The translations under genes were made by a program, and so were the position numbers. The notes beneath the pieces are model-generated. The model was not told the DNA's origin. It made no database searches and worked only from the letters and a program-made list of their open reading frames with translations. Below, in pieces: positions 14,170-63,361 of a stretch of DNA of 64,000 nucleotides (positions within the stretch are counted from its first letter, which is position 1; the number at the start of each line of letters is the position of its first letter). This DNA is from Candidatus Micrarchaeia archaeon (lineage in GTDB: Archaea; Micrarchaeota; Micrarchaeia; Anstonellales; Anstonellaceae): NCBI GenBank assembly GCA_041659465.1, contig JBAZYD010000002.1, positions 30,253 to 94,252 on the forward strand, given 5' to 3'.

Positions 14170-15279
14170 ATGTTGACGATGAATAAGCCAACGATTGACC
14201 CCTGGGCGTCAGAGCAGCAGTTCGACATGGGCAAGCTCATTGAGGATTTTGGCATGTCGCCATTCACCACGTCGCTCTCAGAGAGGCTTCCTGGCTTCCT
14301 TCTTGCGAAAAGGGGCGGATTGCTTGCGCACCGCGAGCTGGACCTGTGGCTTTCCGACGCCGAGAAGGGAAAGCCTGTTGCTGCAATGTCTGGCATCAAG
14401 CCGTCATCCGAGTTCCATCTTGGCAGCAAGCTCACGGCGCAGGAGCTCATCTACTACCAAAAGCAGTTCGGCGCCAAAGTTTTCTATGCGATTGCCGACC
14501 TTGAGGCGTTTGCGGACAACGGCCTTTCGCTTGAGCAAAGCCACGAAACAGCCGTGTCAAACGTAGCAGACCTGCTCGCGCTGGGGCTTGACGAGAAAAA
14601 CGCGCACATCTATAAGCAAAGCCAGGAGCGGCGCGTGATGAATGCGGCATTCATCTACAGCAAGCGCGCCACGCCTGCAATGCTCAACGCGATTTACGGA
14701 GAGAGAAACTATTCGCTTTACTTTTCGGCACTCGTCCAGGTGGCCGACATACTCCTTCCCCAGCACAAGGACTTTGGCGGCGCCAAGCGCGTCCTGGTGC
14801 CTGTTGGCATTGACCAGGACCCTCACATACGCTTTGCGCGCGACATCGCCTTCAAGGAAAAGCTCGCCCTCTCATGCGCCACCTACCATGTCACCATGCG
14901 CGGCTTGAGGGGAGAGACGAAAATGAGCAAGCGCGATCCCGCTTCCACACTCTCGCTTTCAGACACGCCCGAGGCTGCAAAAAAGAAGCTCATGTCCGCC
15001 TTCACCGGCGGGCGCGCAACAGCTGAGGAGCAAAAAAGGCTTGGCGGCGAGATAGAAAAGGACGTGCTTTACGAGCTCGCGCGCTTCCACTTCATATCTG
15101 ACGATGCGCTTTTGGAGGAGATGAAGCAGGACATGGTGACCGGGCGCCTTCTTACTGGGGAATACAAGCAGAAGTACATTCCCTATATGCTTGCGTGGCT
15201 CAAGGCGCATCAGGAAAAGAAAAAGGAGATGCTGCCGAAAGCAAGGAAGATACTGGAAAAAGCGCACGCAGAAGGCTGA
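14170..15279 (+). CDS. trpS: tryptophanyl-tRNA synthetase (archaeal type)
   Basis: N-terminal DPW...KLIEDFG, degenerate HIGH (FHLG), KMSKRDP (KMSKS). Length fits archaeal TrpRS rather than TyrRS. The start may be the ATG at 14179. Confidence 0.8.
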   Translation: MLTMNKPTIDPWASEQQFDMGKLIEDFGMSPFTTSLSERLPGFLLAKRGGLLAHRELDLWLSDAEKGKPVAAMSGIKPSSEFHLGSKLTAQELIYYQKQFGAKVFYAIADLEAFADNGLSLEQSHETAVSNVADLLALGLDEKNAHIYKQSQERRVMNAAFIYSKRATPAMLNAIYGERNYSLYFSALVQVADILLPQHKDFGGAKRVLVPVGIDQDPHIRFARDIAFKEKLALSCATYHVTMRGLRGETKMSKRDPASTLSLSDTPEAAKKKLMSAFTGGRATAEEQKRLGGEIEKDVLYELARFHFISDDALLEEMKQDMVTGRLLTGEYKQKYIPYMLAWLKAHQEKKKEMLPKARKILEKAHAEG

Positions 15280-15344
15280 ACCGGTCCGCGCGCGAAAACT
15301 TCTGGAGAAGGCGCAGGCTGACTAGTTTTGAAGGAAAAAGAAAA

Positions 15345-15417
15345 GCAGGAAGAAAAAGGGAAAAAAAATAAAAAGCAGAAGAAAAAGAAAAAATAAAAGA
15401 CGGGCTTAGCCGCCCGT
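15345..15417 (-). terminator. hairpin plus long U/C tract after the S-layer-like gene
   Basis: On the minus strand, ACGGGC-GGCTAA-GCCCGT (15400-15417) is followed by CTTTTATTTTTTCTTTTTCTTCTGCTTTTTATTTTTTTT. Confidence 0.6.
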
Positions 15418-15431
15418 TACACAGGTATCAT

Positions 15432-17573: not shown

Positions 17574-17610
17574 ATTTCCACCTCTCCTCTTTTTTCTTGA
17601 CCGAACACTT

Positions 17611-17653
17611 TTTATATATAGTGGTTAATCCTGTTTTCACCATTTGTGAAAAC
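17611..17653 (-). promoter_or_regulatory. TATA box and upstream inverted repeat of the S-layer-like gene
   Basis: TATATATAAA (minus strand, 17611-17620) lies ~40 nt before the ATG. GTTTTCAC-N5-GTGAAAAC spans 17633-17653. Confidence 0.4.
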
Positions 17654-17843
17654 ATGCGTTCCACAATACACTTTGCTGATGCGAGCCTTGCTTAAAAGGA
17701 AGCCCCGGCTCACGCCCGGGACGGATATATAAAGCTTTTGTGGTGCGATGTGGCTTTCACGACGTAAAAACAAGAAGCCACGCTTTGCTGCATATTATGC
17801 TTCCTGGAACATATAATTGCGCACGTTTTTGTTCGGCGCAATA

Positions 17844-18842
17844 TCAGTACCTGATGCCCTTCCTTGCCATCGCAATCCTTGGCACCAGCGCGTTTGCCAC
17901 AGCCTGCTCCACCTGGTCGGCGCGGTGCATTACTCCGCCCGAGAACCATCCCAGCGCGCCCTGGCGCCTGCCAATGCCCTCCACGCCTGCAAGCTTCTCC
18001 ATCACGCGCGACAGGTCGCTTTTCCCGCGTATCTTCCTTGCCATCCAGGCGGGCACGCAAAAGCCCGCGCCTGTGCCGAATGTCGCTGCCTTGCCGTCGA
18101 ACACGCAGCAGATGGTGATGTCGAAGAACTCGCCTTTCCGGATTTCAAACAGGCCGCTCTCTATCCCGAGGGAATAATCGCACTTTCCTTTCGCTCTCTT
18201 CCAAGCTGCGCGCGCACGGTTTTCCGCGCCCCTGAATGTCTCGGCATTGAAAGGGTGGTGGCTCACGAGTGATTTTTCTTTGTGCCCTGACAGGGCAAAC
18301 TTCCTGCCAAATACTCTCGCAAGAGCGGTGCGAGCGCCAGTTAGCTTGGTTGGATTGTCAGTGCCTGCCTGCACGCGAAGCGGGCGCAGCAGTTTTCCCC
18401 GCACATCATACTTTCCGTGGAAAATGTCCGCGCACGAGATTTTCTGCAAGTTATCTGCATATGCCAATGGGACTGATATTATTTTCAGGGCGGGAATGCC
18501 TCGCCTTTTGCGCGCGGCATTTATTTTTTCCGCAGCCGCTTCCGTTTCCCCGCTCACAATTATGGCGTCCGCAGCCAGCCTGTCCGCCACGTCGCTCTCG
18601 CTCTCTATCTTCACAATGGCGGCGCGCGAAAGGAGCCCGTTGTGCGCAAGGTTCCTCTTGAGGTTTGCGAGGCGCTTTTCGTACGGAAATGAAGGGTAAA
18701 TCTTATGCGCGCGCACATACTTGTCCGATGTCAGGCCTATGGTGATTCTCGAGAATTCATTGCATTCGACAAGGAGCCTTGCATGCCCTGCGTGCACGTA
18801 GGTGAAAGTCCCGCCTATTATGCAATGCCCCTTGCCTGCCAT
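17844..18842 (-). CDS. fusion: archaeal phosphopantetheine adenylyltransferase-like cytidylyltransferase + DUF84-type NTPase
   Basis: N-terminal IIGGTFTYVHAGHARLL...IGLTSD (nucleotidyltransferase). C-terminal GTDNPTKL...GIESG...GWFSGG resembles the inosine/xanthosine triphosphatase (YjjX/Mj0226) family. Confidence 0.7.
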   Translation of the reverse strand: MAGKGHCIIGGTFTYVHAGHARLLVECNEFSRITIGLTSDKYVRAHKIYPSFPYEKRLANLKRNLAHNGLLSRAAIVKIESESDVADRLAADAIIVSGETEAAAEKINAARKRRGIPALKIISVPLAYADNLQKISCADIFHGKYDVRGKLLRPLRVQAGTDNPTKLTGARTALARVFGRKFALSGHKEKSLVSHHPFNAETFRGAENRARAAWKRAKGKCDYSLGIESGLFEIRKGEFFDITICCVFDGKAATFGTGAGFCVPAWMARKIRGKSDLSRVMEKLAGVEGIGRRQGALGWFSGGVMHRADQVEQAVANALVPRIAMARKGIRY

Positions 18843-18851
18843 ACCATGCGC

Positions 18852-20204
18852 CTACCAGCTGTATTTCACTCCGAAAAGCTCGTATACGTATGCCACCAGG
18901 AAGACAAAGCCCACGAAGAACGGGTATATCCACAGCATGCATATCAGGGGCAGTATGTGCCTTTGGTGCGGCTTTGTCCTTGATATCTCAAAGCTCATAA
19001 TCAGGAAGTATGTCCAAATCGACAGGGAAAACAGCCCGAGCACCCACGCAGACTGGAACATGAGCATGCCGTTGCCCATGCCCGCGGCGGTGGCGCTCAT
19101 GCCTGCCGCGAAATTGTAGGCGAACGGCGTGGCCCAGTCAAAGAGGTTGCGGCTCCAGGACATCAGGGTCCATGCCATGAAAAGCGCGGCGAAAAAGCCG
19201 CTCCCAAGTGTCGTTGGCAGTATGAACAGACCGAACTCGCCGTATTTCGGGTTGAAGAACAGGTCGATGTACTTGAGTATGTTCATCACGCCGCCGCGGT
19301 ACCAGCGCAGCCTCTGCTTGAAAAGCCGCGGAAGGTCCCCCGGGACTTCGGTAAGCACTGAAGTCTCGTGGCACGCGCGTATCTTGTATCCCTGCTTTTG
19401 CATGCGCAGTGCAATCTCCATGTCCTCGGTGAGGTTCTGCTCGTCAAACCCGCCGAGCTTGTCAAGTATGGACTTGCGGTAGAGCGCTGTGGGGCCGGGC
19501 GTGACATACAAGCCGTCTATGCTCGCAATCGTCCTGAAGAAAAACCCGAAAGATATCCAGTACTCTATCTCCTGTATGCGCTGCAGCATGGTCTTCGGCG
19601 CGTTCACGCACACAAACACCACCACGGAGGCGATTTTCTCGTCCTCGAAAAAGTGCCGCACTGCCTTGGCAAGCACGTCCTTTGCAGGGTAGGTGTCGGA
19701 ATCTATGCAGGCGACTATTTCCCCTTTTGCCTTGCTGATGGCGTAGTTGAGCGCGGACGCCTTGCCCCTGTTCTTGACGTTCCGCATGAGGGTGATGCCG
19801 GGCACCTTTTCCAATTTCTCATACGAGCCGTCGGTTGAGCCGTCGTCAATCACCAGTATGTCAAACGTGCCCGGGTACTCCATCCCCTTGCAGGCGTCAA
19901 GCGCATGGAAGATGGTGTGCCCGGTATTGAAGGAGGGCATCACCACTGTCACGTGCGGGTACTTGTCCGGCTCAGGGGGCAATATCTCCTCCTTTGCCCC
20001 GTCGGTCCACATTATGAGGTATGCCACGAAAATGAAAAGCGAGAAAATGGTGTAGCCTATGAATATTGCCTGGTACGATATGGACAGGAAGAAGAAGACG
20101 GCAAGCGCCACCACCACCATGCCTATTATGGCAAGCTCGCGCCTTTCAGGTATGTGTATTGTGGAGCGCTTGAATTCGGGCTTTTTCTCAGCCAAAAATC
20201 TCAC
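18852..20204 (-). CDS. membrane-embedded processive family 2 glycosyltransferase
   Basis: VVMPSFN, IDDGSTDGS, DSD, TEDME and QRLRWYRGG (QxxRW), flanked by N- and C-terminal TM helices. Confidence 0.8.
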   Translation of the reverse strand: MRFLAEKKPEFKRSTIHIPERRELAIIGMVVVALAVFFFLSISYQAIFIGYTIFSLFIFVAYLIMWTDGAKEEILPPEPDKYPHVTVVMPSFNTGHTIFHALDACKGMEYPGTFDILVIDDGSTDGSYEKLEKVPGITLMRNVKNRGKASALNYAISKAKGEIVACIDSDTYPAKDVLAKAVRHFFEDEKIASVVVFVCVNAPKTMLQRIQEIEYWISFGFFFRTIASIDGLYVTPGPTALYRKSILDKLGGFDEQNLTEDMEIALRMQKQGYKIRACHETSVLTEVPGDLPRLFKQRLRWYRGGVMNILKYIDLFFNPKYGEFGLFILPTTLGSGFFAALFMAWTLMSWSRNLFDWATPFAYNFAAGMSATAAGMGNGMLMFQSAWVLGLFSLSIWTYFLIMSFEISRTKPHQRHILPLICMLWIYPFFVGFVFLVAYVYELFGVKYSW

Positions 20205-51703: not shown

Positions 51704-51775
51704 GCCCCTGTAGCTCAGCGGTAGAGCGCGTGCATGGTAAGCACGAGGTCACGAGTTCAATCCTCGTCGGGGGCT
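51704..51775 (+). tRNA. tRNA-Thr (anticodon GGU)
   Basis: Hand-folded cloverleaf. Acceptor GCCCCUG/CGGGGGC, D arm GCUC-AGCGGUA-GAGC, anticodon arm CGUGC-AUGGUAA-GCACG, T arm ACGAG-UUCAAUC-CUCGU, discriminator U. No encoded CCA. Confidence 0.9.
51759..51775 (+). repeat. attL (AATCCTCGTCGGGGGCT, 3' end of tRNA-Thr)
   Basis: Identical to 58165-58181. Confidence 0.85.
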
Positions 51776-51827
51776 TCAAGAATTCAATTCCACTATTTTA
51801 TAAACTTAGTCGTTAAAAGCCCCTTAT

Positions 51828-52922
51828 ATGGGTGCTTTGGAGCAGCTAATCGAGCTAAAGAAGCGCACAGTCGGCGATGTGCGAATATACAAATACCTAA
51901 CTTATGGCAAGATGCTCCAAAGACTTTCGCCTGAGAAGCTTGATGTTTCCTTAAAGGACATGAAGAAAACCGTTGCACTCGCCGATAAGATAAACCGCAG
52001 CCATTATGCGGCATGGACTAAGAAGGACCTGCGCCTTCAGCTTAAGCTCATGTGGAAGCTTGCCAATGGCTATGACTTGGAGGACACCCCGAAAGAAATT
52101 CGATGGGTTAAGTGCAGCCTGGCAAGGAGAGATAGGAAGCTTCCCAAGAACCTTTTTACAGACGAGGAAATTAAGAAGATGCTCAAGGTTGCCAATCTCA
52201 GGAATAGGGCGATAATCTCCCTTCTATATGAAAGCGGGCTTAGGAACTCGGAGCTTTGCGCCCTCAAGAAGAATGATGTGGAATTCATCAAGGAAGGCGC
52301 TCGTATCCATGTGCCGGAAGGCACAAAGACAGGCTCGCGCTCGATTTTGATTATAGACAGCGAGCCGTTGCTTGCATCTTGGCTTGCATCTCATCCAATA
52401 AAGAAAGACGATGCGCCCCTCTTTGTTAGCATCCACAGCAAGAAGATAAAGCCGATGTGCAAGGAAAACATAATCAAGCTACTTAAATTGACGGCGATTG
52501 ATGCAGGGATAACGCACCGTGTTTATCCTCATCTTCTAAGGCACTCAAGCGCAACGAAGTTAGCGAAGCATCTTACAGAGGCACAGATGAAAGCCTATTT
52601 TGGTTGGGGGCAGGATAGCAGCATGGCGGCCACTTATGTGCATCTCTCAGGCAAGGACACTGACGCGGGAATTCTTACCATGCACAATAAGCCTGTGGAA
52701 AAGGAAAAGGCGGAAAATAAGCTTGAGCCTCAGATATGCAAGCGATGCGGCAAGACAAATATGCACGATGTTAAAATGTGCGGCTATTGTGGCTTGAGCT
52801 TTGACAAAAACGAGGCAAAGAGCGATAACCTCTCAATGCAAGAGGAAATGGCGAAAATGAGAAAACAGATAAAACAGCTTCTTGATGCCCAGGTGGATGA
52901 GAAGAAAAAGAAGCGGGGTTAA
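51828..52922 (+). CDS. int: tyrosine recombinase/integrase with C-terminal zinc ribbon
   Basis: ESGLRNSE (Arg I), HLLRHS (His-x-x-Arg-His), ATYVHL (Tyr), CKRC-x10-CGYC. TATA-like CTATTTTATAAAC lies ~25 nt before the ATG, so the mRNA may be leaderless. Confidence 0.9.
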   Translation: MGALEQLIELKKRTVGDVRIYKYLTYGKMLQRLSPEKLDVSLKDMKKTVALADKINRSHYAAWTKKDLRLQLKLMWKLANGYDLEDTPKEIRWVKCSLARRDRKLPKNLFTDEEIKKMLKVANLRNRAIISLLYESGLRNSELCALKKNDVEFIKEGARIHVPEGTKTGSRSILIIDSEPLLASWLASHPIKKDDAPLFVSIHSKKIKPMCKENIIKLLKLTAIDAGITHRVYPHLLRHSSATKLAKHLTEAQMKAYFGWGQDSSMAATYVHLSGKDTDAGILTMHNKPVEKEKAENKLEPQICKRCGKTNMHDVKMCGYCGLSFDKNEAKSDNLSMQEEMAKMRKQIKQLLDAQVDEKKKKRG

Positions 52923-53407
52923 AAAGTAGTTTTCGCTTTCTCCAAAATTTCTTTTTTTACGTTGGCAGGTAGATAATAGAGTGCAATCTCCTTTCCTGCT
53001 GTTTGCTCTCTCCTATTCACCCAACCGAGCATGACAAAATTATTAACAAGCCTGATAACTACGGGAAAAAAGGGGATTTGCTTTCTCTGTTTGCGGAGTT
53101 TATCGAGCGTTGCGAGTGCATCCTTCTTTTTCATTTCCCAAAGAGGGATAGAATACTCACCGACTTCTTTTTTCTTGCTATTAAAGCCGAGAATTCCCTC
53201 ATGAATGATGGTTCGCTCGACTGCGCCCTTCTCCTGGCCGAAATAAACAGCGTTGCAGGTTCGGAGATAAAGCTCGAAGGCGGGCATCGCGCTCTGACTT
53301 TTGGCGAGCTGATAAACAACAGCCTGCTCAAGAAGTGAAAGAGCCTCCCATCTAAAGGGCAATTCCTGTTTTTCCTTCTCCTTTTCTACTTCGGCGAGCC
53401 TTTGCAT
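52919..53407 (-). CDS. hypothetical protein (possible wHTH)
   Basis: 162-aa ORF divergent from the RHH-Rep operon. Its 3' end overlaps the integrase stop by 4 nt. Confidence 0.5.
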   Translation of the reverse strand: MQRLAEVEKEKEKQELPFRWEALSLLEQAVVYQLAKSQSAMPAFELYLRTCNAVYFGQEKGAVERTIIHEGILGFNSKKKEVGEYSIPLWEMKKKDALATLDKLRKQRKQIPFFPVVIRLVNNFVMLGWVNRREQTAGKEIALYYLPANVKKEILEKAKTTF

Positions 53408-53418
53408 GGGTATCTCTT

Positions 53419-53456
53419 GGTATTATGGGTTTATAAAATGTTTGCTCGCTAATACC
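53419..53456. promoter_or_regulatory. TATA box bracketed by a 7-bp inverted repeat
   Basis: GGTATTA (53419-25) ... TTTATAAAA (53430-38) ... TAATACC (53450-56), in the divergent region of the element. Confidence 0.45.
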
Positions 53457-53486
53457 ACACAATAACCAAAAATAACCCTTTGGGGG

Positions 53487-53630
53487 ATGACCATGTTTGT
53501 AGGAACGACGATTGAAGGAACTTTGCTCGAAGCAATCGAGCGCAGGACACGAATGGGCTTCACGAAATCGGCCATAATCAAGGAGGCGCTTAGGCAATAC
53601 CTAGAGCCGAAAGAGGAGGCGAGTGCATGA
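53487..53630 (+). CDS. ribbon-helix-helix (CopG-like) protein, 47 aa
   Basis: Below the track cutoff. MTMFVGTTIEGTLLEAIERRTRMGFTKSAIIKEALRQYL follows a beta-strand / helix / helix pattern. Confidence 0.55.
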   Translation: MTMFVGTTIEGTLLEAIERRTRMGFTKSAIIKEALRQYLEPKEEASA

Positions 53631-53731
53631 GCGTCATGCTTGAAATCCTGGGGGAAATCGCAGAGGAGCGCGGCTTGCAGGTCATCAAGAACGAAGATGG
53701 CACGATAACACTGAAAGAGAAGGCGGAATAA
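53627..53731 (+). CDS. 34-aa ORF overlapping the RHH stop (ATGA)
   Basis: MSVMLEILGEIAEERGLQVIKNEDGTITLKEKAE. Supported only by translational-coupling geometry. Confidence 0.3.
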   Translation: MSVMLEILGEIAEERGLQVIKNEDGTITLKEKAE

Positions 53732-53751
53732 GGAAAACGGCGGGTGGAAAA

Positions 53752-55314
53752 ATGGACACGAAACCAATATGCGAGAAGTGTTTTGCTCCTCTTGAAAAGA
53801 GCAAGTGCATATCACCTGAAACAGGAATAACCTCGGAAAAATGGCTGCATCCTGGCGGCTTTCTAAAGTGCAGTGTTGAGGATGACTTGCTTGCCATCCT
53901 AAAAAATCCGCGCCTTTTCGAGATTATCATAATTGACGAACTTGGAAAAAAAATAGTTGGGGAGAATGAAACAAAACACACCATCTTTCTTTGCGGCTGC
54001 GGTATTTGGGTTGAAAATCACGATGCAACGAGCTACAACCTGATGCAGAGCGCAGAAGGCGGCGCTGGCAAGGACTACACCCTAAACGCAACACTTTCAA
54101 TTTTCCCTAAGGAGCGATATATGAAACGCACCCGCATTAGCGGAAAGGTTATCTCCTATTGGCACAGGTCGGACAAAGAGCCTGAATGGACTTGGAACGG
54201 CATAATCCTATATCTTGAGGATGCCTCTCAAGAGCTAATGAATTCTGAGGTTGTCAAGGTCTTTCTTTCAAGCGGCTCATTCGCAACGATTTTGATTAAC
54301 CAGGTAGCAACCGATTTGGAAATAAAGGGGAAGCCTGTTGTTATGATTTCCTCCGCAACGGCAAAACTGAACAAGGAGCAGGGCCGCAGAGTGCCAATCC
54401 TAAGATGCGATGAGAGCCACACGCAAACAAAAAAGATTATGGGAAAGCAGGCAAGGGCTGCGGCTGAGGGCAAAGTTATCACATACAACCCAAAAATAAC
54501 CGAGGCTCTTTCCCATCTCAAGCGCATAAAAGTAAAAATTCCCTTTGCCGTTGGCATTGAGAAAGCAATACCTGCAAACAACATCATTCTGCGCACACAC
54601 TTCCCGCGCCTGCTGGACTACATCAAGGCAAGCTGCGCCCTGCATCAATATCAGCGCAGGGTTGTTGATGAGTATTACCTGGCCGAGCAGCGCGATTATG
54701 AGCTTGCGGCAATAGCCTTCAGGAAGATAACGAGCAATCCTTTTTCTATTCCGTTGAGCCATCAGGAGCAGAAGCTACTTGAGAAGATTGAGGAGCTGCA
54801 AGCGCCCCTATTTTTGAAACAGGATTTTGATGGTTTTACTGTTGAGGAGATTGCGCAGCACATTCAGTTTTGGGGAGATACTATGCTACGCGATGAGCTG
54901 CGCAAGCTTGCTGATGCTGGACTTTTGATAACAGGAAGCCGCAAGAAGGATGATGGCAAAGGCGGAAGGTCTGCAATTACATATAGAAAACCCGACTTGA
55001 AAAGTATAGACTTGCCATCATGGGAAGCTATCACAAAAACCGAAACAACCAAAACAACCGAAATAACCGAAACTAACGAAACAACCGAAACAACTGATAA
55101 AAGTATAGACAATGCGGAGGTTGTTTCGGTTTCTTCGGTTTATTCGGTGTCAAATCAGGTCAAGAATGTCGCGCTGTCTGGAGGATTTCCACCCGCCAAA
55201 CAGGCAGGAGCTACAATCTGGATACCTCCATTAGTAGCTCCTGCTACTATTCCAAACACGCAGGGAGGGGAGGTTATCTCCCTTTCCTCCCCTCCCTCAA
55301 AAGGTGCTACATGA
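53752..55314 (+). CDS. Rep candidate: Zn ribbon + P-loop-like NTPase + wHTH-like domain + Thr/Glu repeat tail
   Basis: N-terminal CEKC...C. SAEGGAGKDYT (Walker A-like, with Asp instead of Ser/Thr) and IILYLEDAS (Walker B-like). FTVEEIAQHI...LRKLADAGLLITG (wHTH-like). Confidence 0.55.
   Translation: MDTKPICEKCFAPLEKSKCISPETGITSEKWLHPGGFLKCSVEDDLLAILKNPRLFEIIIIDELGKKIVGENETKHTIFLCGCGIWVENHDATSYNLMQSAEGGAGKDYTLNATLSIFPKERYMKRTRISGKVISYWHRSDKEPEWTWNGIILYLEDASQELMNSEVVKVFLSSGSFATILINQVATDLEIKGKPVVMISSATAKLNKEQGRRVPILRCDESHTQTKKIMGKQARAAAEGKVITYNPKITEALSHLKRIKVKIPFAVGIEKAIPANNIILRTHFPRLLDYIKASCALHQYQRRVVDEYYLAEQRDYELAAIAFRKITSNPFSIPLSHQEQKLLEKIEELQAPLFLKQDFDGFTVEEIAQHIQFWGDTMLRDELRKLADAGLLITGSRKKDDGKGGRSAITYRKPDLKSIDLPSWEAITKTETTKTTEITETNETTETTDKSIDNAEVVSVSSVYSVSNQVKNVALSGGFPPAKQAGATIWIPPLVAPATIPNTQGGEVISLSSPPSKGAT
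55038..55149. repeat. iteron-like array: six direct 9-mers (AACCGAAAC type), 31-bp spacer, three inverted 9-mers
   Basis: Direct units at 55038-55091. Spacer AACTGATAAAAGTATAGACAATGCGGAGGTT. GTTTCGGTT, TCTTCGGTT and TATTCGGTG at 55123-55149. Confidence 0.6.
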
Positions 55315-55523
55315 TGGTTAAGCTTTGCCAAGAGTGCGGCGCTCCAATCGTGGGGCGGCCCTGGTGGTTCAGGCATCCAACCATGACCGGGGATAAATCA
55401 TATCCCTTCTGTTCGCACCGATGCCGCGAGTGCTGGCGCTTGGAGTGGAAGGCTACAATAGCGGAGCATCTACTTGAGAAGGCATCCGCAGAGCTGGCAG
55501 CCGCAGAAAAGGAGGCGATATGA
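55311..55523 (+). CDS. FCS-type zinc-finger protein
   Basis: CQEC...FCSHRC pattern. ATGA overlap with the upstream gene. Confidence 0.5.
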   Translation: MMVKLCQECGAPIVGRPWWFRHPTMTGDKSYPFCSHRCRECWRLEWKATIAEHLLEKASAELAAAEKEAI

Positions 55524-55905
55524 GATGAGCCTTAGCGAAAACCATTTAACGCTTGCTAATTGGCAACAACAACACTGTAAGCCTCCCTATATAGGGTTAA
55601 AGATAGACTTGCACGCTTTTTTTTTGAAAAAAGAAAAAACCCCCCCTTGGCAATGTTCCTTAAGCCTCTTTGAGCCGCGCAGCGCGGCCCTGCGCTGCAA
55701 TATACTACTAACTAGATGGTGATGTTATACAAATCAAAATCAAAAAGGAAAAGTATATACGCGGCATTGCCTGCGCGGAGCGCATACTATCAAGGCGCGG
55801 ATGCAGGACACCTGTTAAGCTTGCCACGCTGTTAAGCCGCCTGGGTGAGAAAAACAAAATCGCTGCTTGTATCTACTTGGGAAAAATCGGGGAGGTTGTG
55901 ATTGA

Positions 55906-56085
55906 ATGAGCCTGGATGCCGCACAATCAATTATCCTATTGGCTGCGCTCTTTGCCCTATGCCTCTTTCTTGATGGCATCCTGGGCGCGATGGCTAGCCT
56001 TCTTGGCAAGCTAAGGGCATCTTTGCCTAAGGGGGATGGGCAGGCGATTGAAAAAATAAAGAAGTTGGTTAGTGGCATCACTTGA
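55906..56085 (+). CDS. 59-aa single-TM protein
   Basis: Below the track cutoff. GGAGGT SD 9 nt upstream. MSLDAAQSIILLAALFALCLFLDGILGAMASLLG... Confidence 0.4.
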   Translation: MSLDAAQSIILLAALFALCLFLDGILGAMASLLGKLRASLPKGDGQAIEKIKKLVSGIT

Positions 56086-56094
56086 GGTGATACT

Positions 56095-56385
56095 TTGCAG
56101 GGAAAACTAAAGGAAAAGGGATTAACCCGCGTGAGCGTTTATCTAAACAAGGAGGAGCTATCCTCTATGGCACAGCTTGCGGAGAAGCTCGGTTATAGGA
56201 GGGTGGGGCTACCATTGGAAACCATTAAGCCTCATGGCTTCTCAGGGGAAACCTTCTCTAATACTGATGGCATCAGCCGCGCCTTGAAATATTGCTTTGA
56301 CTTCTATATGCGGGTAAATCCTAAACTGCTTGCAAGGAGGGCCGAGCTTCTAAAAGAGGTTGAGGACCTGGGGGCGAAGATATGA
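56095..56385 (+). CDS. RHH-like protein
   Basis: TTG start after GAGGTGAT. RVSVYLNKEELSSMAQLAEKLG follows a beta-strand / helix pattern. Confidence 0.5.
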   Translation: MQGKLKEKGLTRVSVYLNKEELSSMAQLAEKLGYRRVGLPLETIKPHGFSGETFSNTDGISRALKYCFDFYMRVNPKLLARRAELLKEVEDLGAKI

Positions 56386-56693
56386 AAAAAGTTTTACTCA
56401 GTGATATTGAAAGGGAGCTAATCAAAACCCTGCGGAAGATGAACAGCCGCAAGCTCTCAGAGCCGAAGCCTCCGCGCAGACCGCCCCATATCGGAGATGA
56501 GGAGGAAAGCGAAGATGAGGAGGATGAGGAGGAGGCAAAGAAGCGCACCCCTCAGGGCGGCTCATACATCCACTTATCCTCAGATGGCTCGATTGAGATA
56601 ACTGGCCCTTCTTTGCACCAGGTCAAGAAGGTTGCCCTGGAACTCCATAAGCGGCAAGTGCGGAGATATAGCGGGCTTGACTATTTCAGATAA
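56382..56693 (+). CDS. hypothetical protein with acidic linker
   Basis: ATGA overlap with the upstream gene. Contains a DEEESEDEEDEEE tract. Confidence 0.45.
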   Translation: MKKVLLSDIERELIKTLRKMNSRKLSEPKPPRRPPHIGDEEESEDEEDEEEAKKRTPQGGSYIHLSSDGSIEITGPSLHQVKKVALELHKRQVRRYSGLDYFR

Positions 56694-56806
56694 TTTGCAT
56701 CTTTTTTGAAGGCTCTTTTTTCGGGTTTGTAGCATGCCTTACCTCGGAGGCTGTTAGCAAATCCTTATACGCAACGAAAAATCGAATTTTAGCGGAGGAT
56801 GAGCAA

Positions 56807-57091
56807 ATGAAATACAAAGGACAACTGATGTTTAGGGGCCAGGAGCTTATCATGCTGTTCGTATTCGGCGGCATACTGCTCGGAGCTGGCGCTCTTGCGA
56901 TGGCTGGCATGACACCAACACCAACAGGAGGCTATCAATCAAACGCAACGGCATCGATTTTCGGCAACGGCTCTAACGCATTGGTGCAATTCTCGCAGCA
57001 GCTCCCCACAATCGGTATAATTGGAGGCATATCGCTCCTAATTCTCATGCTTTTCGTCGGGTTCGGAGCGTTCATCGGCGGAAGGAAATAA
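56807..57091 (+). CDS. 2-TM protein with pilin-like N-terminus, paralogue 1
   Basis: MKYKGQLMFRGQELIMLFVFGGILLGAGALA ... LPTIGIIGGISLLILMLFVGFGAFIGG. GGAGGATGAG SD. Confidence 0.6.
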   Translation: MKYKGQLMFRGQELIMLFVFGGILLGAGALAMAGMTPTPTGGYQSNATASIFGNGSNALVQFSQQLPTIGIIGGISLLILMLFVGFGAFIGGRK

Positions 57092-57112
57092 CAATCTTGG
57101 AGGATTGAGAAA

Positions 57113-57385
57113 ATGAAATATAAAGGACAACTATTGGCACGTGGCACGGAGTTGGTTATGTTCTTCGTGTTTATCGGCATCCTGGCGGGAGCTGGTGCGC
57201 TTGCACTTTCGAGCTTTGCGACAGGGCAGACGGGCAGCGCAGCCTCGACCATCAATAACGCATCGAGTGGGCTGGTTTCTTTCAGCACGCAGCTTCCGAC
57301 AATCGGAATTATCGGGGGTATCGCCTTGCTCATACTTGTTTTATTTGTGGGCTTCGGTGCTTTCCTCGGCGGCGGCAAGCGTTAA
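57113..57385 (+). CDS. 2-TM protein with pilin-like N-terminus, paralogue 2
   Basis: MKYKGQLLARGTELVMFFVFIGILAGAGALA ... LPTIGIIGGIALLILVLFVGFGAFLGG. GGAGGATTGAG SD. Confidence 0.6.
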   Translation: MKYKGQLLARGTELVMFFVFIGILAGAGALALSSFATGQTGSAASTINNASSGLVSFSTQLPTIGIIGGIALLILVLFVGFGAFLGGGKR

Positions 57386-57396
57386 GCGGCCTCAGC

Positions 57397-57440
57397 GCGG
57401 GAGTGCAAGCTCCCGCCTTTTTCTTTTTTCTTTTCTATCC
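57397..57440 (+). terminator. hairpin plus T-rich tract after the 2-TM gene pair
   Basis: GCGGGAG-TGCAAG-CTCCCGC followed by CTTTTTCTTTTTTCTTTTC. Confidence 0.6.
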
Positions 57441-57530
57441 TTAGAGGTAAATAGGCGCGGAAAGCGCAAGGGGAAGGGCAACAAAGAGCATATTTATACT
57501 TGTTGCCTAGAAATTTATACGAGGATAAAC

Positions 57531-58097
57531 ATGGGTATTGATAAAATAGTGGGTGCGCTCCCTACTGATAAAGAGATTGAAAAATTCATGCCTGGAATTT
57601 TAAAGCAAATACCTCAAGCAAGTATCTGCACCTCTCGCAGAATTGCCAATGTAATAACTCATAACTGCTTTAGAAATACTGAAATAGAAAATATCCATGT
57701 CAATTATATCTCTGATAAAGAAATGATGAAAACCATGATTGAAGCTTCTGCCAAAGTAGATTTTTTAATCAGAAAAAAGAAAATTTGGGATATGCGACCT
57801 TCCGAAGTGGTGGATTACTGCCTTTTTTCTTCTTTCCATAATATCGGAAAAGAGATGCCCAAAGATGCGCTAAAGAAACTTAGAATGGAGGCAACAAGAA
57901 AAATTTACTCAACTCAGCTTTTGTATCGTGAAAGACCTGCCCTTTTTGATGCATATGTAAAGATGACTTTTTCGAGTGTTCAAGAGTGGGATAAGACAAC
58001 TATATGGAACGGCCAGCAGCTTAAACCTCGTAGGGGGGTTAAACCAAAAGAACCAGGTCATCAATATTTGCAAAAAATAAAGAAAAGAGGCATATGA
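57531..58097 (+). CDS. hypothetical 188-aa protein, most AT-rich gene of the element
   Basis: Internal ATG of track ORF 57141-58097. The upstream part of that ORF overlaps the 2-TM gene and the terminator in another frame. Confidence 0.5.
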   Translation: MGIDKIVGALPTDKEIEKFMPGILKQIPQASICTSRRIANVITHNCFRNTEIENIHVNYISDKEMMKTMIEASAKVDFLIRKKKIWDMRPSEVVDYCLFSSFHNIGKEMPKDALKKLRMEATRKIYSTQLLYRERPALFDAYVKMTFSSVQEWDKTTIWNGQQLKPRRGVKPKEPGHQYLQKIKKRGI

Positions 58098-58164
58098 GGG
58101 CGATAAAGGGCTAAAGATGGGGGCTTTTTACGTCTATCAAAATAAAAAAGTGGAATTAACTGCT

Positions 58165-58181
58165 AATCCTCGTCGGGGGCT
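58165..58181 (+). repeat. attR (AATCCTCGTCGGGGGCT)
   Basis: Identical to 51759-51775. Overlaps the stop codon (58180-58182) of the convergent gene. Confidence 0.85.
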
Positions 58182-59355
58182 AATTTATCCTTCCAATCAG
58201 TTTCAGGATGGAGCCGAAAATCCCTTCTCCTTTTCCGCTTTCCTCTGCCTTTGCAGGCTCTGCCTTCCCATCAAGCACGCTCTCAAGCGCGCGCAGCTCC
58301 TGCAGCTGCTTTTCCAATGCCGCCTTGTCTGAGCCTGAAAGCTCCTCTTTCTTTTGCTTTATCCTTTCCGCGCGCTGCCATTCCGCTTCGTCCGCCTCTT
58401 TTGTTTTCCCAAGCTCGGACAGCCGCCCAACAAGCCTTTGCGCGCCATCATCATGCGCTGAGAGGTAATTGATATCCGGTGCGCGCGAAAACGACATTAT
58501 GCTGAAGAAGAAACCCCTTCTTGCCGCCACTTCCTGCCTAAAAAGCGACAAGTCAATTCCCAGGTGCCGCAGCTTCTGCTCGCTTTCCCCTGCCATTTCA
58601 TGGAGCTCCTGCGCGGTTTTTGCTTCTAGCTTGGATTTCTGCAGAAAAGATGCCAGGGCGTCTGCCTCCTGCGCGCTTATTTCAGGGAAGCCGATTTTGC
58701 CAAGCTCCCCTTCCTTCATTTTCAAAAGGAGCGCGCAAAACGGCATGGATTTCAGGGATTGCACATGAGCTTGCCAAATTTTCGAAAGCTGTTCGTTAAT
58801 CTGCTCTTTCTCGCCATGCCTTTTCACCTTTTCATCATCAATGGGCGGCTCCTTTTCCAGCCATCCGATGCCGGCAAGCTTTGCCTCCACGTCACGCCTT
58901 GCGCGCTCGAGCTGCGCGCGCTTTTTCAGGAGCAAATCGTTCACAATTTCCAGCCGCGCGCCCATTTCGATGAATTCGTAGAATTCGGATGCCTCGCGCC
59001 GCGCCCTGTCCGTGCTTTTCGAGCGCAAAAGCTTGATGATGGAAACCATCCGCTTCCCATGCTCCAGCGTGATGTGCTTGCTCTCGTATTCCGACACCAA
59101 GTGCTGCTCAAAGTTTTTCATGTCCTTTGCCTTGCGCCTTATCTTGCGCGAGAACTTAATCTTCGCCTCAAAAGCCGCATGCTCCTTTTCATGCATCTGG
59201 CCGCTCACATCCTCTATTTCGTCTATAATGTCGGACAGGTCAGCGCAATCCTGGAGCAGGAAATGGAAGTCCTCCCCGCCCGCGCGCGTAAGCTTTTCCT
59301 CAATCCGCCTCTTCTCCAGCACAAGGGAGTGAATCTCCTTTTCATCATTGTACAT
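58180..59355 (-). CDS. coiled-coil protein of unknown function
   Basis: E/K/L/A-rich 391 aa from the ATG (MYNDEKE). No motif recognised. Confidence 0.55.
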   Translation of the reverse strand: MYNDEKEIHSLVLEKRRIEEKLTRAGGEDFHFLLQDCADLSDIIDEIEDVSGQMHEKEHAAFEAKIKFSRKIRRKAKDMKNFEQHLVSEYESKHITLEHGKRMVSIIKLLRSKSTDRARREASEFYEFIEMGARLEIVNDLLLKKRAQLERARRDVEAKLAGIGWLEKEPPIDDEKVKRHGEKEQINEQLSKIWQAHVQSLKSMPFCALLLKMKEGELGKIGFPEISAQEADALASFLQKSKLEAKTAQELHEMAGESEQKLRHLGIDLSLFRQEVAARRGFFFSIMSFSRAPDINYLSAHDDGAQRLVGRLSELGKTKEADEAEWQRAERIKQKKEELSGSDKAALEKQLQELRALESVLDGKAEPAKAEESGKGEGIFGSILKLIGRIN

Positions 59356-59479: not shown

Positions 59480-60142
59480 ATGTTATTGTTTCAAACAACG
59501 CTCCGCAAAACTGCTGTAAAGAAGGAAACAGACCGGCTTGAGGCGCAGCAGCAAGGCACGGACGCCCAGAAGCGCGTGAACAGCGCCTGGAACACGCTTA
59601 TACGCGCCCCGGATGATTGCCTTCTTATCGTCAAAGTAAAATATCCCACGCTCGGATCCGTGCTGTCTCATGCCCTTTGCAAGACAGATAGGTCAGGCAA
59701 ATCCAAAATCTACCTGGCGGGGTACCACACTTCCAACGAGATAAGGGAACTCATGGAGCATAGCAACACAACCGGCGTCCTGCTCTGCGAATATAAAAAG
59801 GCGCCTTCCTCCAGCAATGCCTCTGGCTTTTGGAATGATTCTCACTCTAGTATAATTGGATCGGTAGGATACAAGGTCGTAAAAACAAGGGGCGGATTCG
59901 ATTATGGATACCAGCCATTCATGGAAATAAGCGACGCTGAGATGGTGAAAAAAGGTTCGGGCTTGGTGATAGTCAAGTCGGATGGAACCAAATTGACAGG
60001 GAATTATCTATCCATAGCGCAGAATGAAGACGACGAAAATATCCGGGACATCGCCCTTTTGGTGCGCGTTGCTCCAACCAAGTATGTGCGAGTGGTGGTG
60101 CAAAGCGATGACATCCGCACGATTCACAGCACAGCGAACTAA
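59480..60142 (+). CDS. hypothetical protein
   Basis: 220-aa ORF after a GGTGG SD. No motif recognised. Confidence 0.45.
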   Translation: MLLFQTTLRKTAVKKETDRLEAQQQGTDAQKRVNSAWNTLIRAPDDCLLIVKVKYPTLGSVLSHALCKTDRSGKSKIYLAGYHTSNEIRELMEHSNTTGVLLCEYKKAPSSSNASGFWNDSHSSIIGSVGYKVVKTRGGFDYGYQPFMEISDAEMVKKGSGLVIVKSDGTKLTGNYLSIAQNEDDENIRDIALLVRVAPTKYVRVVVQSDDIRTIHSTAN

Positions 60143-61319: not shown

Positions 61320-62747
61320 TTGGAAAAAATAAGCGAAGGTATCTGGGAAATGCCGCGCGAGGGCACCATGAGGGTGGCTGCGCGCGTGTTTGCGACCGAC
61401 AAGATGTTTGCAACAATGGGCAAGGACAGGACGTTCGGGCAGCTGAGGAACGTGGCGTCATTGCCTGGCATTGTGGGCAAGGCTTGCCTCATGCCAGACG
61501 GGCACGAGGGATATGGCTTCCCTATTGGCGGCGTTGCGGCATTTGACCCCGAGCAGGGGGGCGTGGTGTCGCCAGGCGGCGTGGGCTATGACATCAATTG
61601 CGGCGTGAGGCTGATTGCCACAGAGCTTCCCGCAGCCGAGGTGCGCGCGAAAATGCGCCAGCTTGTGGACCTGCTTTTCAAGAACGTGCCATCTGGCGTG
61701 GGCTCCAAGGGCAAGCTTCGCGTGACAGACCGCGAGCTTGATGAGGCGCTGACGCGCGGCATTGACTGGGCGATTGACTCAGGATACGGCACGCGCCAGG
61801 ACAAGGAAAGGACAGAGGAAGGCGGCAGGATGGAAGGCGCTGACCCGTCAGCTGTAACGGAAAAGGCGAAGAAGCGCGGCTTGCCGCAATTCGGAACAGT
61901 GGGCGCGGGCAACCATTTTGTGGAGATACAGGACGTGCAGGAAATCATGCTTCCTGAAGTTGCCGAGAAATTCGGCGTGAAGAAAGGCAACGCAGTAGTA
62001 ATGATACACTGCGGCTCGCGCGGATTCGGGCACCAGGTGTGCGACGATTCTTTGCGCGACATGCTTGCAGCCTCCCGAAAGTACGGGATTTCGCTTCCGG
62101 ATCCAGAGCTTTGCTGCGCGCCCATAAACTCCCCTGAGGCGGAAAAATACCTCAAGGGAATGCGCTGCGCTGTGAACTATGCATTCTGCAACAGGCACAT
62201 CATGATGCACTGGGTGCGCGAGACGTTTGACGAGGTGTTCGGCAAGGGCACGTCTGATGGCATGCCCCTCGTATACGACGTCTGCCACAACATCGCAAAA
62301 TTCGAGGAGCACACAGTTGACGGGCAGAGAAAGAAAGTGTGCGTTCACAGGAAGGGCGCCACGCGCGCATTCGCAGCAGGAAGAATCGAAGTGCCTGCAA
62401 TTTACAGGGACATCGGCCAGCCTGTAATCATCCCTGGCAGCATGGGCACATCCTCCTACTTGCTTGTAGGCAAGCAAGGGGCAATGGACAACACGTTCGG
62501 CTCCTCGTGCCACGGCGCAGGCAGGGCAATGAGCCGCTCCAAGGCAATACACACCTGGAAAGGCAATGCCATCTCAGCAGAGCTTTTGAGCAGGGGGATA
62601 TTGGTGAAGTCCACCGAGTCCGAACTTCTCGCAGAAGAGGCGCCGGGCGCGTACAAGGACGTCGACGAGGTCGTGCTTTCGGTAAAAGCCGCGGGAATAA
62701 CCGACATCGTGGCAAAGTTGCTGCCAATGGGCGTGGTGAAGGGATAA
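61320..62747 (+). CDS. rtcB: RNA-splicing ligase RtcB
   Basis: GYDINCGVR, HCGSRGFGHQV, GSMGTSSYLL and SSCHGAGR motifs. TTG start after GGTGAT. Confidence 0.9.
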   Translation: MEKISEGIWEMPREGTMRVAARVFATDKMFATMGKDRTFGQLRNVASLPGIVGKACLMPDGHEGYGFPIGGVAAFDPEQGGVVSPGGVGYDINCGVRLIATELPAAEVRAKMRQLVDLLFKNVPSGVGSKGKLRVTDRELDEALTRGIDWAIDSGYGTRQDKERTEEGGRMEGADPSAVTEKAKKRGLPQFGTVGAGNHFVEIQDVQEIMLPEVAEKFGVKKGNAVVMIHCGSRGFGHQVCDDSLRDMLAASRKYGISLPDPELCCAPINSPEAEKYLKGMRCAVNYAFCNRHIMMHWVRETFDEVFGKGTSDGMPLVYDVCHNIAKFEEHTVDGQRKKVCVHRKGATRAFAAGRIEVPAIYRDIGQPVIIPGSMGTSSYLLVGKQGAMDNTFGSSCHGAGRAMSRSKAIHTWKGNAISAELLSRGILVKSTESELLAEEAPGAYKDVDEVVLSVKAAGITDIVAKLLPMGVVKG

Positions 62748-62834
62748 ACGCTTCAAAAGAACATTCAAATAGCGCGGCTAATGCAAAGCTATATATAGTT
62801 GGTATATACACAAGCTATATATCAAGGTGATATG

Positions 62835-63089
62835 ATGGTATCTGCACAAGTTTACCTGGACGAGTACACGAATCACGTGCTCAACGTGATAAAGGCGAAA
62901 TTCGGGCTTACCGACAAGTCCGGTGCAATAAACAAGCTTGCCGAGATTTACGGCGAGGATTATGTGGAAAAGGATGCCAATGGCGAATATGTGAAAAAAA
63001 TACTCGATATTGAGGAGCGGCACTTCAAGAAATACGGCAATCGCAAGATGTCACTTAAGGAGCTTGATGCGCTTTGCGGTGATGGCTGA
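62835..63089 (+). CDS. antitoxin-like protein, TA pair 2
   Basis: MVSAQVYLDEYTNHVLNVIKAKFGLTDKSGAI is a paralogue of 29553-29789. GGTGA SD 4 nt upstream, the same geometry as pair 1. Confidence 0.7.
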   Translation: MVSAQVYLDEYTNHVLNVIKAKFGLTDKSGAINKLAEIYGEDYVEKDANGEYVKKILDIEERHFKKYGNRKMSLKELDALCGDG

Positions 63090-63361
63090 TGTTCGACTTT
63101 GACTTTTCAGACGAGCTCAAGATCAAGATAAGGAAGCTTGTGAAGAAGGACAGGAAAAAAGTCGAGATAATCAATAACAAGGTTAAGGATATCGTTAAAT
63201 GCAGCCCAACGGAGATAATGCACTACAAGAACTTAAGGCACGATATGAAAGAATACAAGCGCGTGCACATAAACACGCATTTTGTGCTCACTTTCAAGGT
63301 GGATTTGGTGAAGAATTTCGTGCTGTTTGTCGACTTTGACCATCACGACAAGGTGTACTGA
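63089..63361 (+). CDS. relE: RelE/ParE-superfamily toxin, TA pair 2
   Basis: ...YKRVHINTHFVLTFKVDLVKNFVLFVDFDHHDKVY is a paralogue of 29786-30055. TGATG overlap with its antitoxin. Confidence 0.7.
   Translation: MFDFDFSDELKIKIRKLVKKDRKKVEIINNKVKDIVKCSPTEIMHYKNLRHDMKEYKRVHINTHFVLTFKVDLVKNFVLFVDFDHHDKVY

Follow-up and report, generated by a model that had tools for sequence, protein, structure and literature searches.

A small integrative plasmid-like element of a Micrarchaeia archaeon with probable homologues of a spindle-shaped virus capsid protein

INTRODUCTION

The plasmids pSSVi and pSSVx of Sulfolobus and Saccharolobus are about 5 to 6 kb long and carry a copG-like gene upstream of rep, and pSSVi also has an integrase and integrates into a tRNA gene. 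Both are presented, in the available part of a recent preprint, as fusellovirus satellite plasmids that spread by packaging into a spindle-shaped helper (bioRxiv 10.1101/2025.02.15.638363). The same part describes the SRCEs, circles of 2.7 to 9 kb from hypersaline habitats that combine plasmid replication proteins (Reps) with a major capsid protein (MCP) and/or an ATPase; they hold an incomplete spindle-virus morphogenetic module, are proposed as satellites, and are compared with the bacterial capsid-forming PICIs (cf-PICI) (bioRxiv 10.1101/2025.02.15.638363). Here, we analyzed a 64,000-nucleotide stretch of a Candidatus Micrarchaeia archaeon (GenBank assembly GCA_041659465.1, contig JBAZYD010000002.1, positions 30,253 to 94,252 of the forward strand), called the window throughout, in which a first-pass annotation made from the sequence alone had described a 6.4-kb integrative element in a tRNA-Thr(GGU) gene. 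We report that a small integrative plasmid-like element is integrated at positions 51776 to 58164 in an apparently intact copy, that its backbone is that of a family of integrative plasmids found widely among DPANN archaea, and that a capsid-type gene pair is a module added to this backbone.

Mobile elements also encode MCM helicases, PrimPol-MCM fusions included. The small cryptic plasmid pME2001 has provided a working replicon for shuttle vectors, as described in the available part of the source (PMC8609365), and the structure 7RO2 is that of the capsid protein of Sulfolobus monocaudavirus 1 (SMV1), a spindle-shaped virus (PMC10866085). DPANN archaea have very small cells with reduced genomes, and little is known about the viruses and mobile elements that they harbor. 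No provirus was reported among 1356 Micrarchaeota genomes in a 2026 survey (PMC13573593), indicating that elements of the kind described here escape standard detection.

RESULTS

Exact repeats of a tRNA end bound the element

The 17-mer AATCCTCGTCGGGGGCT forms the 3' end of an intact, intron-free tRNA-Thr(GGU) gene and occurs exactly twice in the 64-kb window (Table 1), where no further copy was found with up to 2 mismatches allowed and the expectation from shuffled sequence was 0. This direct repeat, which duplicates the 3' part of the tRNA, bounds a block of 6,389 bp with a G+C content of 0.464, compared to 0.557 in the remaining window. The right-hand copy, attR, shares 2 nt with the stop codon (58180 to 58182) of a convergent host gene encoding a 408-aa coiled-coil protein (cc408). 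A third, degenerate copy of the core (AAACCTCGTAGGGGGGT, 14/17) was noted at 58023 to 58039, inside orf188 and 142 nt before attR; it is probably a coincidence, because the peptide it encodes is conserved in the sole homologue of orf188.

The first open reading frame (ORF) of the block encodes a full-length tyrosine recombinase with a Xer-like catalytic domain, in which the catalytic R...HxxR...Y residues (including HLLRHS and the Tyr) are followed by a C-terminal ribbon, CKRC-x10-CGYC, of the form CxxC-x10-CxxC. The closest solved structure was P. abyssi XerA (4a8e, 2.4e-15), and the protein scored far under the XerA equivalog cut-off (92.9 vs 220 bits). Since the core lies 52 nt upstream of the intact int ORF, the gene is not split on integration, unlike SSV-type integrase genes, in which attP lies inside int. 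The core is flanked by a 45-nt imperfect inverted repeat (76% complementary) with two perfect boxes, GTGGAATT/AATTCCAC and GGGCTTTT/AAAAGCCC, and a TATA-like TTTTATAAA upstream of int falls inside the left arm. We infer that the left arm holds integrase-binding sites; both arms are conserved in the attP contig described below.

These results bear out what the first-pass annotation had said of the repeat and its position at the tRNA end, of the AT-richer interior, of the stop codon overlap, and of an intact integrase with these motifs 52 nt after the tRNA. All of the ORFs that it had listed were present, among them the tightly packed ORFs of 47, 34, and 520 aa and the 188-aa ORF, as was an inverted repeat, GGTATTA/TAATACC, bracketing TTTATAAAA. 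Its overall reading, that of an integrative element that occupies a tRNA 3' end and carries an intact integrase gene together with a CopG-like/Rep operon, therefore stands. The inverted arms, a 59-aa ORF with one transmembrane (TM) segment, and an iteron palindrome in rep are additional to that annotation.

Relatives of the element are mobile, and the tRNA end is an integration hot spot

A 2.75-kb metagenome contig (L064) runs from the right end of such an element (92% identical to 58121 to 58164) through the exact 17-mer into a left end with its integrase gene. Compared to the window, it is 80% identical in nucleotides over int and 84% identical in the integrase protein, and it continues with a gene for a ribbon-helix-helix (RHH) protein (55%) and with the 34-aa ORF (88%). 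Such an order corresponds to attP in a relative that is circular, or arranged in tandem, and the metagenome from which the contig came also holds Micrarchaeia contigs with this tRNA. The circular attP junction suggested by the first-pass annotation was thus seen in a relative with 80% identity and not for this exact element. A second relative, L001 (7.6 kb), has a 25-nt terminal overlap and therefore closes into a circle. Its backbone has an integrase, a divergent orf162-like gene, an RHH gene and a small ORF, Rep (73% identical), FCS zinc fingers, and an orf103-like gene, in that order, without the hairpin pair described below. The closest integrated relative by Rep (77% identical) was observed at 6003 to 19612 of a contig of at least 678 kb (L002), in a larger element that encodes a 439-aa integrase of its own, a homologue of orf96, and a 1205-aa protein in which a signal peptide is combined with C-terminal anchors.

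At the target site, the order purA to tRNA-Thr is kept in many metagenome contigs with PurA 64 to 95% identical to that of the window, and the DNA downstream of the tRNA varies among relatives with PurA 72 to 95% identical. What follows the tRNA is in some cases another integrase (57% identical in L019/L052, and about 40% in L022, L023, L044, and L092), in others an island of 0.9 to 3.7 kb closing in a degenerate second core copy (L050, L081, L076, and L008/L080), a 70-bp scar (L043 and L094), or ordinary-looking genes for secreted proteins (L078, L043, and L024). Two overlapping contigs (L015 and L019, 99.8% identical in the overlap) reconstruct a different element of about 12.5 kb at tRNA-Thr, bounded by the identical exact 17-bp core. 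The differing downstream DNA and this second element with the same core indicate that the tRNA end is an integration hot spot and that the block is not conserved synteny. As regards gene content, the 12.5-kb element was seen to encode the 57%-identical integrase, an orf162-like gene, a second integrase, and proteins of 716 and 807 aa, with no MCP-like pair. In L043 (405 to 508) and L094 (3095 to 3190), the tRNA is followed at a distance of 79 to 87 bp by a second near-exact core copy, and the conserved insert of about 70 bp enclosed in this way is probably a scar left by a previous round of integration and deletion here.

The plain 17-mer was found in 92 stretches of the metagenome collection, mostly the tRNA-Thr genes of relatives or unrelated DNA, with an attP arrangement in L064 only; in IMG/VR, it gave two unrelated matches, neither with a tRNA. 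It is not a common sequence, as the first-pass reading demanded. A combined pattern specific for attB and attP had 0 matches in the metagenome collection, the window's own contig included. In L078, the tRNA is present with one core copy, the genes of the element are all absent, and other genes precede the 408-aa gene; in all three relatives that hold both flanks (L078, L024, and L043), a 598-aa gene for a secreted phosphoesterase-like protein separates the tRNA from the 408-aa gene. In L038, the tRNA and the htpX-like gene were present, and no match to cc408 was obtained. Given the intervening genes, the present adjacency of the tRNA and the 408-aa gene does not reflect a simple insertion into an ancestral junction of the two, and loss or rearrangement was also involved, so that the earlier proposal that integration had preserved the end of that gene is not established.

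It could be argued from this locus that the block is not mobile at all, i.e., that the 17-bp repeat is fortuitous or a relic in a hypervariable chromosomal island that is now fixed. The other genes held by relatives at this position, the frequent degenerate core copies and scars, and the failure to find a clean empty site would fit such an island. This explanation has only a very remote chance of being right, given that no chance match of the repeat is expected, that the integrase is intact and the arms are symmetric, that L064 has an attP junction, that the backbone relative L001 is circular, and that a second element uses the identical exact core. We conclude that positions 51776 to 58164 are almost certainly an integrated mobile element.

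Regarding the tRNA itself, the orthologous tRNA-Thr(GGU) genes of L024, L043, L038, L047, L050, and others have an intron of about 50 to 110 nt after the anticodon region (compare window position 51739), and an ARAGORN run on L005, L006, and L002 made no call of this gene.

The backbone encodes an MCM-like Rep with a candidate origin inside its gene

The first-pass annotation had called the element largely unrecognizable beyond the integrase and RHH regulators. This does not hold for its 520-aa protein, an MCM-like AAA+ Rep that belongs to an established Pfam family, PF27228 ('MTBMA_p00010_2nd'); the family takes its name from the large ORF of plasmid pME2001/pMTBMA4 of Methanothermobacter marburgensis. 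The protein has 156 homologues, and the family is assigned, as precomputed annotation, to an identical protein and to nearly all of the 120 homologues listed. An AlphaFold2 (AF2) model built with 70 homologues was confident for residues 44 to 440 (mean pLDDT 81.8, pTM 0.76), and in a Foldseek search of PDB, all of the 50 best matches listed were MCM subunits (best E 2.2e-10, probability 1.0). A deviant Walker A motif (GAGKD) and a Walker B motif (LYLED) are followed by a C-terminal winged helix, with positions of about 337 to 412 matching winged-helix regulators (winged helix-turn-helix matches at 339 to 407), and by a disordered, TETTE-rich tail. The Zn ribbon of the earlier description found no support from any tool.

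The protein shares the AAA+ core and the C-terminal winged helix with the MCMs of mobile elements, and in some of its relatives, a PrimPol domain (PF09250) at the N-terminus and a DnaG-type zinc finger are part of the same protein. In contrast to canonical MCM, it has the deviant Walker A and lacks the N-terminal (OB/Zn) domain, with about 43 poorly modelled residues before the AAA+ core, for which reason we call it MCM-like rather than an MCM ortholog. Nor did it match the pRN-type RepA (primase-polymerase plus superfamily-3 helicase), as it has no PrimPol domain and its ATPase matches MCM. No match to Rep was found in phage records. With pME2001/pMTBMA4, the element has only the Rep domain in common; the available part of the description of pME2001 makes no mention of an integrase or of capsid-like genes (PMC8609365). 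Together, these results make it very likely that the 520-aa protein is the Rep of an MCM-like plasmid replicon.

In species-representative genomes, the Rep family was found at 22 loci, labelled as Woese-, Pace-, and Aenigmatarchaeota, Thermoplasmatota, and others, the few with bacterial labels being probably mis-binned. An integrase match accompanied 7 of these loci and a tRNA likewise 7; tRNA, integrase, and Rep occurred together in L113 and L125, in the former in the same order as in the window.

The 3' end of rep, where the gene encodes the disordered tail of the protein, contains a palindromic array of iterons (Table 1) that accounts for 7/8 of the ACCGAA/TTCGGT hexamers in the element. 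The same arrangement is present in L001 (3086 to 3216) and L002 (11350 to 11514). In both, the hexamer keeps its sequence and phase, whereas the third codon of each unit is variable, a pattern indicative of selection at the DNA level. We propose that the iterons are an origin that Rep may recognize. Upstream of the operon, the GGTATTA/TAATACC repeat is a putative operator of the RHH gene and rep. The CopG-like assignment of the 47-aa RHH protein is weakly supported.

The paired hairpin proteins are probably related to the SMV1 major capsid protein

Two of the ORFs encode the paralogous 2-TM proteins tm94 and tm90, which are 66% identical to each other and are both preceded by GGAGGAT, a strong ribosome-binding site. 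For tm94, AF2 modelled a hairpin of two helices (residues 3 to 34 and 57 to 93) with a loop of about 22 residues between them. An exhaustive profile search collected 85 representative clusters, all short and of the same architecture, and 59 of these were combined in the profile A6. Against PDB, A6 matched 7ro2_A, 'major capsid protein', with an E value of 2.6e-6 across both helices and the loop, the next match having an E value of 0.048; hhalign of A6 and 7ro2_A gave a probability of 93.5% over 73 columns. The real target sequence scored 29.3 bits, compared to maxima of 14.6 and 13.5 bits for 2000 global and 2000 architecture-preserving shuffles, respectively. The signal climbed smoothly as divergent members joined the profile and survived removal of the four closest sequences. 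In a pairwise phmmer comparison, tm90 and the SMV1 MCP scored 12 bits. The hairpin pair and the SMV1 MCP share the form of a hydrophobic helix-loop-helix hairpin; they differ in that hhalign identity is only about 14% and no other SMV1-like gene was seen in the element. Judged from these sequence profiles, the pair is probably homologous to the SMV1-type MCP, contrary to the earlier statement that the element holds no recognizable capsid gene.

Among 17 close homologues of the pair, those on six virus-like contigs (L099, 12.5 kb; L100, 29.3 kb, of which 15.7 kb were examined; L101, 8.9 kb; L102, 7.7 kb; L128; and L130) belong to a conserved module. Further members of the module are a 64- to 86-aa protein, a number of small multi-TM proteins, and giant proteins of 987, 1593, and 1765 aa, which combine beta-helix/NosD domains with an N-terminal signal-like sequence and C-terminal multi-TM anchors. 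The virus-like contigs with the pair contain no cellular genes, and the pair is all that contigs of the L099 to L102 type have in common with the element. In a further contig (L129), the pair lies beside an integrase fragment, and DNA similarity to the window begins 96 nt upstream of tm94.

Near the pair, L099 (11106 to 11495), L101 (4131 to 4514), and L102 (4007 to 4390) encode on the minus strand a 127- to 129-aa protein with 4 to 5 TM segments and the motif RDYxxxGEVxD. It resembles a miniature prepilin/preflagellin peptidase; possibly, it is a viral protease for processing of the capsid protein. The N-termini of the MCP-like pair carry KGQ/RGQ motifs. The possibility that these N-termini mark a class III signal peptide, as in pilins, was rejected on inspection of the sequences, which show a second, C-terminal TM helix and no globular domain.

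Plasmid, satellite, or provirus

Taking backbone and pair together, we favor by a modest margin of belief an integrative plasmid with an acquired capsid-protein pair, that is, a virus satellite or a plasmid-virus hybrid. A satellite lifestyle as such is a tentative proposal. More tentative still is the fully specified version, an integrative, capsid-protein-encoding satellite of undescribed spindle-shaped viruses of Micrarchaeia with an MCM-like replicon and its origin inside rep. The first-pass annotation had left plasmid, satellite, and minimal provirus side by side; given the probable MCP homologues, the satellite is the most likely of the three.

Several findings weigh against this favored reading. 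No helper genes were found in the 64-kb window, and the element has no spindle-virus AAA+ morphogenesis ATPase. For this exact element, neither an attP junction nor an excised circle was found, and its exact integrase occurs on no other contig on record, so that the activity of this copy is judged from its intactness (exact repeats and all ORFs open). The clean empty attB that had been anticipated, with the tRNA directly abutting AATTTATCC, was not present in the metagenome collection. The homology to the capsid protein is remote and transitive, running through divergent intermediates; a narrow family profile (A3) had no match in PDB, and a Foldseek search of the hairpin model against BFVD and PDB found none either. 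SSV1 VP1/VP3 and His1 VP21 gave no signal with the pair (hhalign probability 5% and 1%), and with such weak scores for fusellovirus and His1 MCPs, membership in the SSV type is not claimed. VirB2/CedA1-type pilins and holins are likewise alpha-hairpin membrane proteins. No recognizable viral hallmark was found on the virus-like contigs by Pfam or PHROG matches, and one of them reached low-confidence VirSorter category 3 only. Searches for relatives of the pair gave none in GTDB species genomes, and none in IMG/VR whether a single protein or the alignment served as the query. Finally, the roles of the operator and the iterons are read from the DNA sequence alone. In addition, tm90 had no match in phage records, and matches of the hairpin family to PHROGs and Pfam were scattered and marginal.

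The pair could instead be membrane cargo of a plain integrative plasmid that is never packaged, serving in superinfection exclusion or interference with virus assembly or as VirB2/CedA1-type pilin-like subunits. Such a plasmid would be in keeping with the circular L001, which carries the backbone without the pair, with the spread of the Rep family on small plasmid-like contigs, and with the lack of a morphogenesis ATPase and an adsorption protein. A single hairpin-family member has a marginal TrbC/VirB2 match, and the sole homologue of the neighboring orf188 adjoins a VirB4/HerA-like ATPase fragment. However, the family profile has no significant match other than a spindle-virus capsid protein. 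Moreover, the pair always stands in tandem with strong ribosome-binding sites, beside giant anchored proteins and on contigs without cellular genes, and no VirB4-type or PilB-type ATPase was seen beside any copy of it. We therefore consider a plain plasmid unlikely.

Improbable to a higher degree is a minimal or degraded provirus, i.e., either what is left of a spindle virus after loss of the genes for its large adsorption and terminal proteins or an extremely small virus that is self-sufficient. The MCP-like pair, the integrase with its tRNA target, and the small hydrophobic 59-aa ORF would all be expected of one, but beyond the pair the element has nothing in common with the virus-like contigs, and its remainder is collinear with the 7.6-kb circular, plasmid-like L001. 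Intact ORFs and exact repeats argue against decay. At 6.4 kb, the element is less than half the size of the His1 (14.5 kb) and SSV1 (15.5 kb) genomes, no protein other than the integrase and Rep exceeds 200 aa, and no candidate adhesin or tail protein was found among its ORFs. The large terminal or adsorption proteins and the length of at least about 14 kb of a complete spindle-shaped provirus are lacking here; L099 to L102, by comparison, carry proteins of 987 to 1765 aa.

Remaining genes and neighborhood

The features of the element are collected in Table 1. No Pfam or PHROG family was found for orf162; it is presumably a regulator, and its C-terminal part may be a winged helix. L001 has two FCS proteins similar to the 70-aa one after its rep, and a 63-aa ORF of L001 contains the orf103 motif SDG..(I/V)...LxKxQxRRxxGLxY(F)R. 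The 96-aa protein had been listed as a second RHH-like protein, an assignment that none of Pfam, PHROG, and NCBIfam supports. Among 5.8 billion clusters, orf188 has one homologue (61% identical), on a 2.1-kb contig. For the other ORFs, searches of Pfam, PHROGs, NCBIfam, and PADLOC gave nothing usable, and no defense-system model matched.

Table 1. Coordinates of the element, its att sites, and its genes (window positions)
Feature	Position	Strand	Evidence and remarks
Host tRNA-Thr(GGU), integration target, attB side of attL	51704..51775	+	ARAGORN; Rfam RF00005, 65.9 bits
attL core, tRNA 3' end, 17-bp exact direct repeat	51759..51775	+	2 copies in window, 0 expected
Left att arm with AATTCCAC and AAAAGCCC	51779..51823	.	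Imperfect inverted repeat of right arm
Tyrosine recombinase (int), 364 aa, ATG 52 nt after tRNA	51828..52922	+	PF00589 5.2e-21; phrog_1 integrase 2.8e-25
orf162, 162 aa, backbone gene adjoining int	52919..53407	-	Same position and strand, similar motifs in L001 (146 aa), L002 (190 aa), L019 (175 aa)
Promoter/operator candidate, 7-bp inverted repeat GGTATTA (53419-53425)/TAATACC (53450-53456) around TTTATAAAA	53419..53456	.	Sequence reading
CopG-like ribbon-helix-helix protein, 47 aa	53487..53630	+	PF01402 RHH_1 1.1e-3, just below cut-off; phrog_7325 CopG-like repressor 2.5e-3
34-aa ORF of rep operon	53627..53731	+	88% identical in L064
Rep, 520 aa, MCM-like AAA+ ATPase	53752..55314	+	PF27228; AF2 model; Foldseek
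Candidate replication origin, iteron palindrome in rep 3' end	55026..55148	.	6-7 direct 9-bp-phased iterons (ACCGAA), then 3 inverted (TTCGGT)
FCS-type zinc-finger protein, 70 aa	55311..55523	+	Weak DUF7576 (1.4e-4) and YacG
59-aa ORF, one N-terminal hydrophobic (TM) segment	55906..56085	+	ORF list; no family
orf96, 96-aa backbone protein	56095..56385	+	48% identical homologue in L002; no Pfam, PHROG, NCBIfam match
orf103, 103-aa backbone gene product, acidic middle	56382..56693	+	C-terminal part conserved in L001
MCP-like protein 1 (tm94), 94 aa, probable; alpha-helical hairpin membrane protein	56807..57091	+	AF2; profile vs 7ro2_A
MCP-like protein 2 (tm90), 90 aa, probable; tm94 paralogue	57113..57385	+	84-91% identical to counterparts on L099-L102
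orf188, 188-aa AT-rich cargo gene, effectively ORFan	57531..58097	+	G+C 0.375
Right att arm with GGGCTTTT and GTGGAATT	58120..58164	.	Inverted repeat; 92% identical in attP contig L064
attR core, second 17-bp copy	58165..58181	+	2-nt overlap with convergent host gene stop codon

The noncoding 382-nt stretch 3' of the FCS-finger gene (55524 to 55905) contains a T9/A-rich run and G+C-rich palindromes; it was not matched by any Rfam family, does not fold more strongly than expected (z = -0.54), and is not conserved as DNA in L001 or L002. Outside the element, a 220-aa ORF (59480 to 60142, plus strand, G+C 0.50, no Pfam match) lies between the 408-aa gene and a gene for an HtpX-like protease. It is missing from L078 and L024, which have about 65 bp at that position, and looks like a separate small insertion. 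Directly after RtcB (61320 to 62747), a pair of genes for proteins of 96 and 90 aa (62799 to 63361, plus strand, G+C about 0.42) looks like a type II toxin-antitoxin system, the 90-aa protein resembling RelE/YoeB-type toxins.

DISCUSSION

Like pSSVi and pSSVx, the element described here is a small plasmid-type replicon with a copG-like gene before rep, and like pSSVi, it has an integrase and a tRNA target. It differs from both in its Rep, which is an MCM-like AAA+ protein of PF27228 and not a pRN-type primase-polymerase/helicase, in the integrase gene, which is intact after integration whereas the SSV-type gene is split, in encoding probable capsid-protein homologues, and in its DPANN host. 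In addition, pSSVi and pSSVx spread by packaging, whereas packaging of this element is hypothetical. With the SRCEs, as far as the available part of their description goes, it shares the size class (6.39 kb) and the combination of a plasmid-associated replication protein with what is probably a partial spindle-virus module, here the MCP-like pair. Measured against the same part, it is unlike them in being integrated in a tRNA gene with its own integrase, in its different Rep family, in lacking an AAA+ morphogenesis ATPase, in its non-halophilic Micrarchaeia host, and in having two probable MCP paralogues, the only detectable known relative of that family being the SMV1 MCP.

The life cycle of the element could be pictured as follows. 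The integrase would excise the element and re-integrate it at the core, and the excised circle would replicate from the ACCGAA iterons in the 3' end of its own rep, recognized by the winged helix of the MCM-like Rep. The CopG-like RHH protein would act at the GGTATTA/TAATACC operator to control expression of Rep, and replication would be primed by host enzymes, because this Rep lacks the PrimPol domain that is fused to many of its relatives. If the element is a satellite, then upon infection by a spindle-shaped helper its excised form might be wrapped in particles made of its own and/or the helper's capsid protein, with the helper supplying the adsorption and terminal proteins that are missing from the element. 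Such packaging could also interfere with assembly of the helper.

Should this picture prove true, the locus would provide a fully delimited example of such an element in DPANN archaea, with att sites, integrase, regulator, Rep, and candidate origin, and a replicon type spread across several DPANN phyla would be a possible starting point for a genetic vector. It would tie unannotated hairpin membrane proteins to spindle-virus capsid proteins and flag the 8- to 29-kb contigs that carry them as candidate viruses of Micrarchaeia, implying that spindle-shaped viruses, represented by contigs of the L099 to L102 type, infect Micrarchaeota. Plasmid-derived, capsid-encoding satellites would extend beyond hypersaline habitats and gain an integrated, lysogen-like state, making the element an archaeal counterpart of the bacterial capsid-forming PICIs that resides in a tRNA gene. 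The interplay of helper, satellite, and host in DPANN archaea would then be testable with existing metagenomes.

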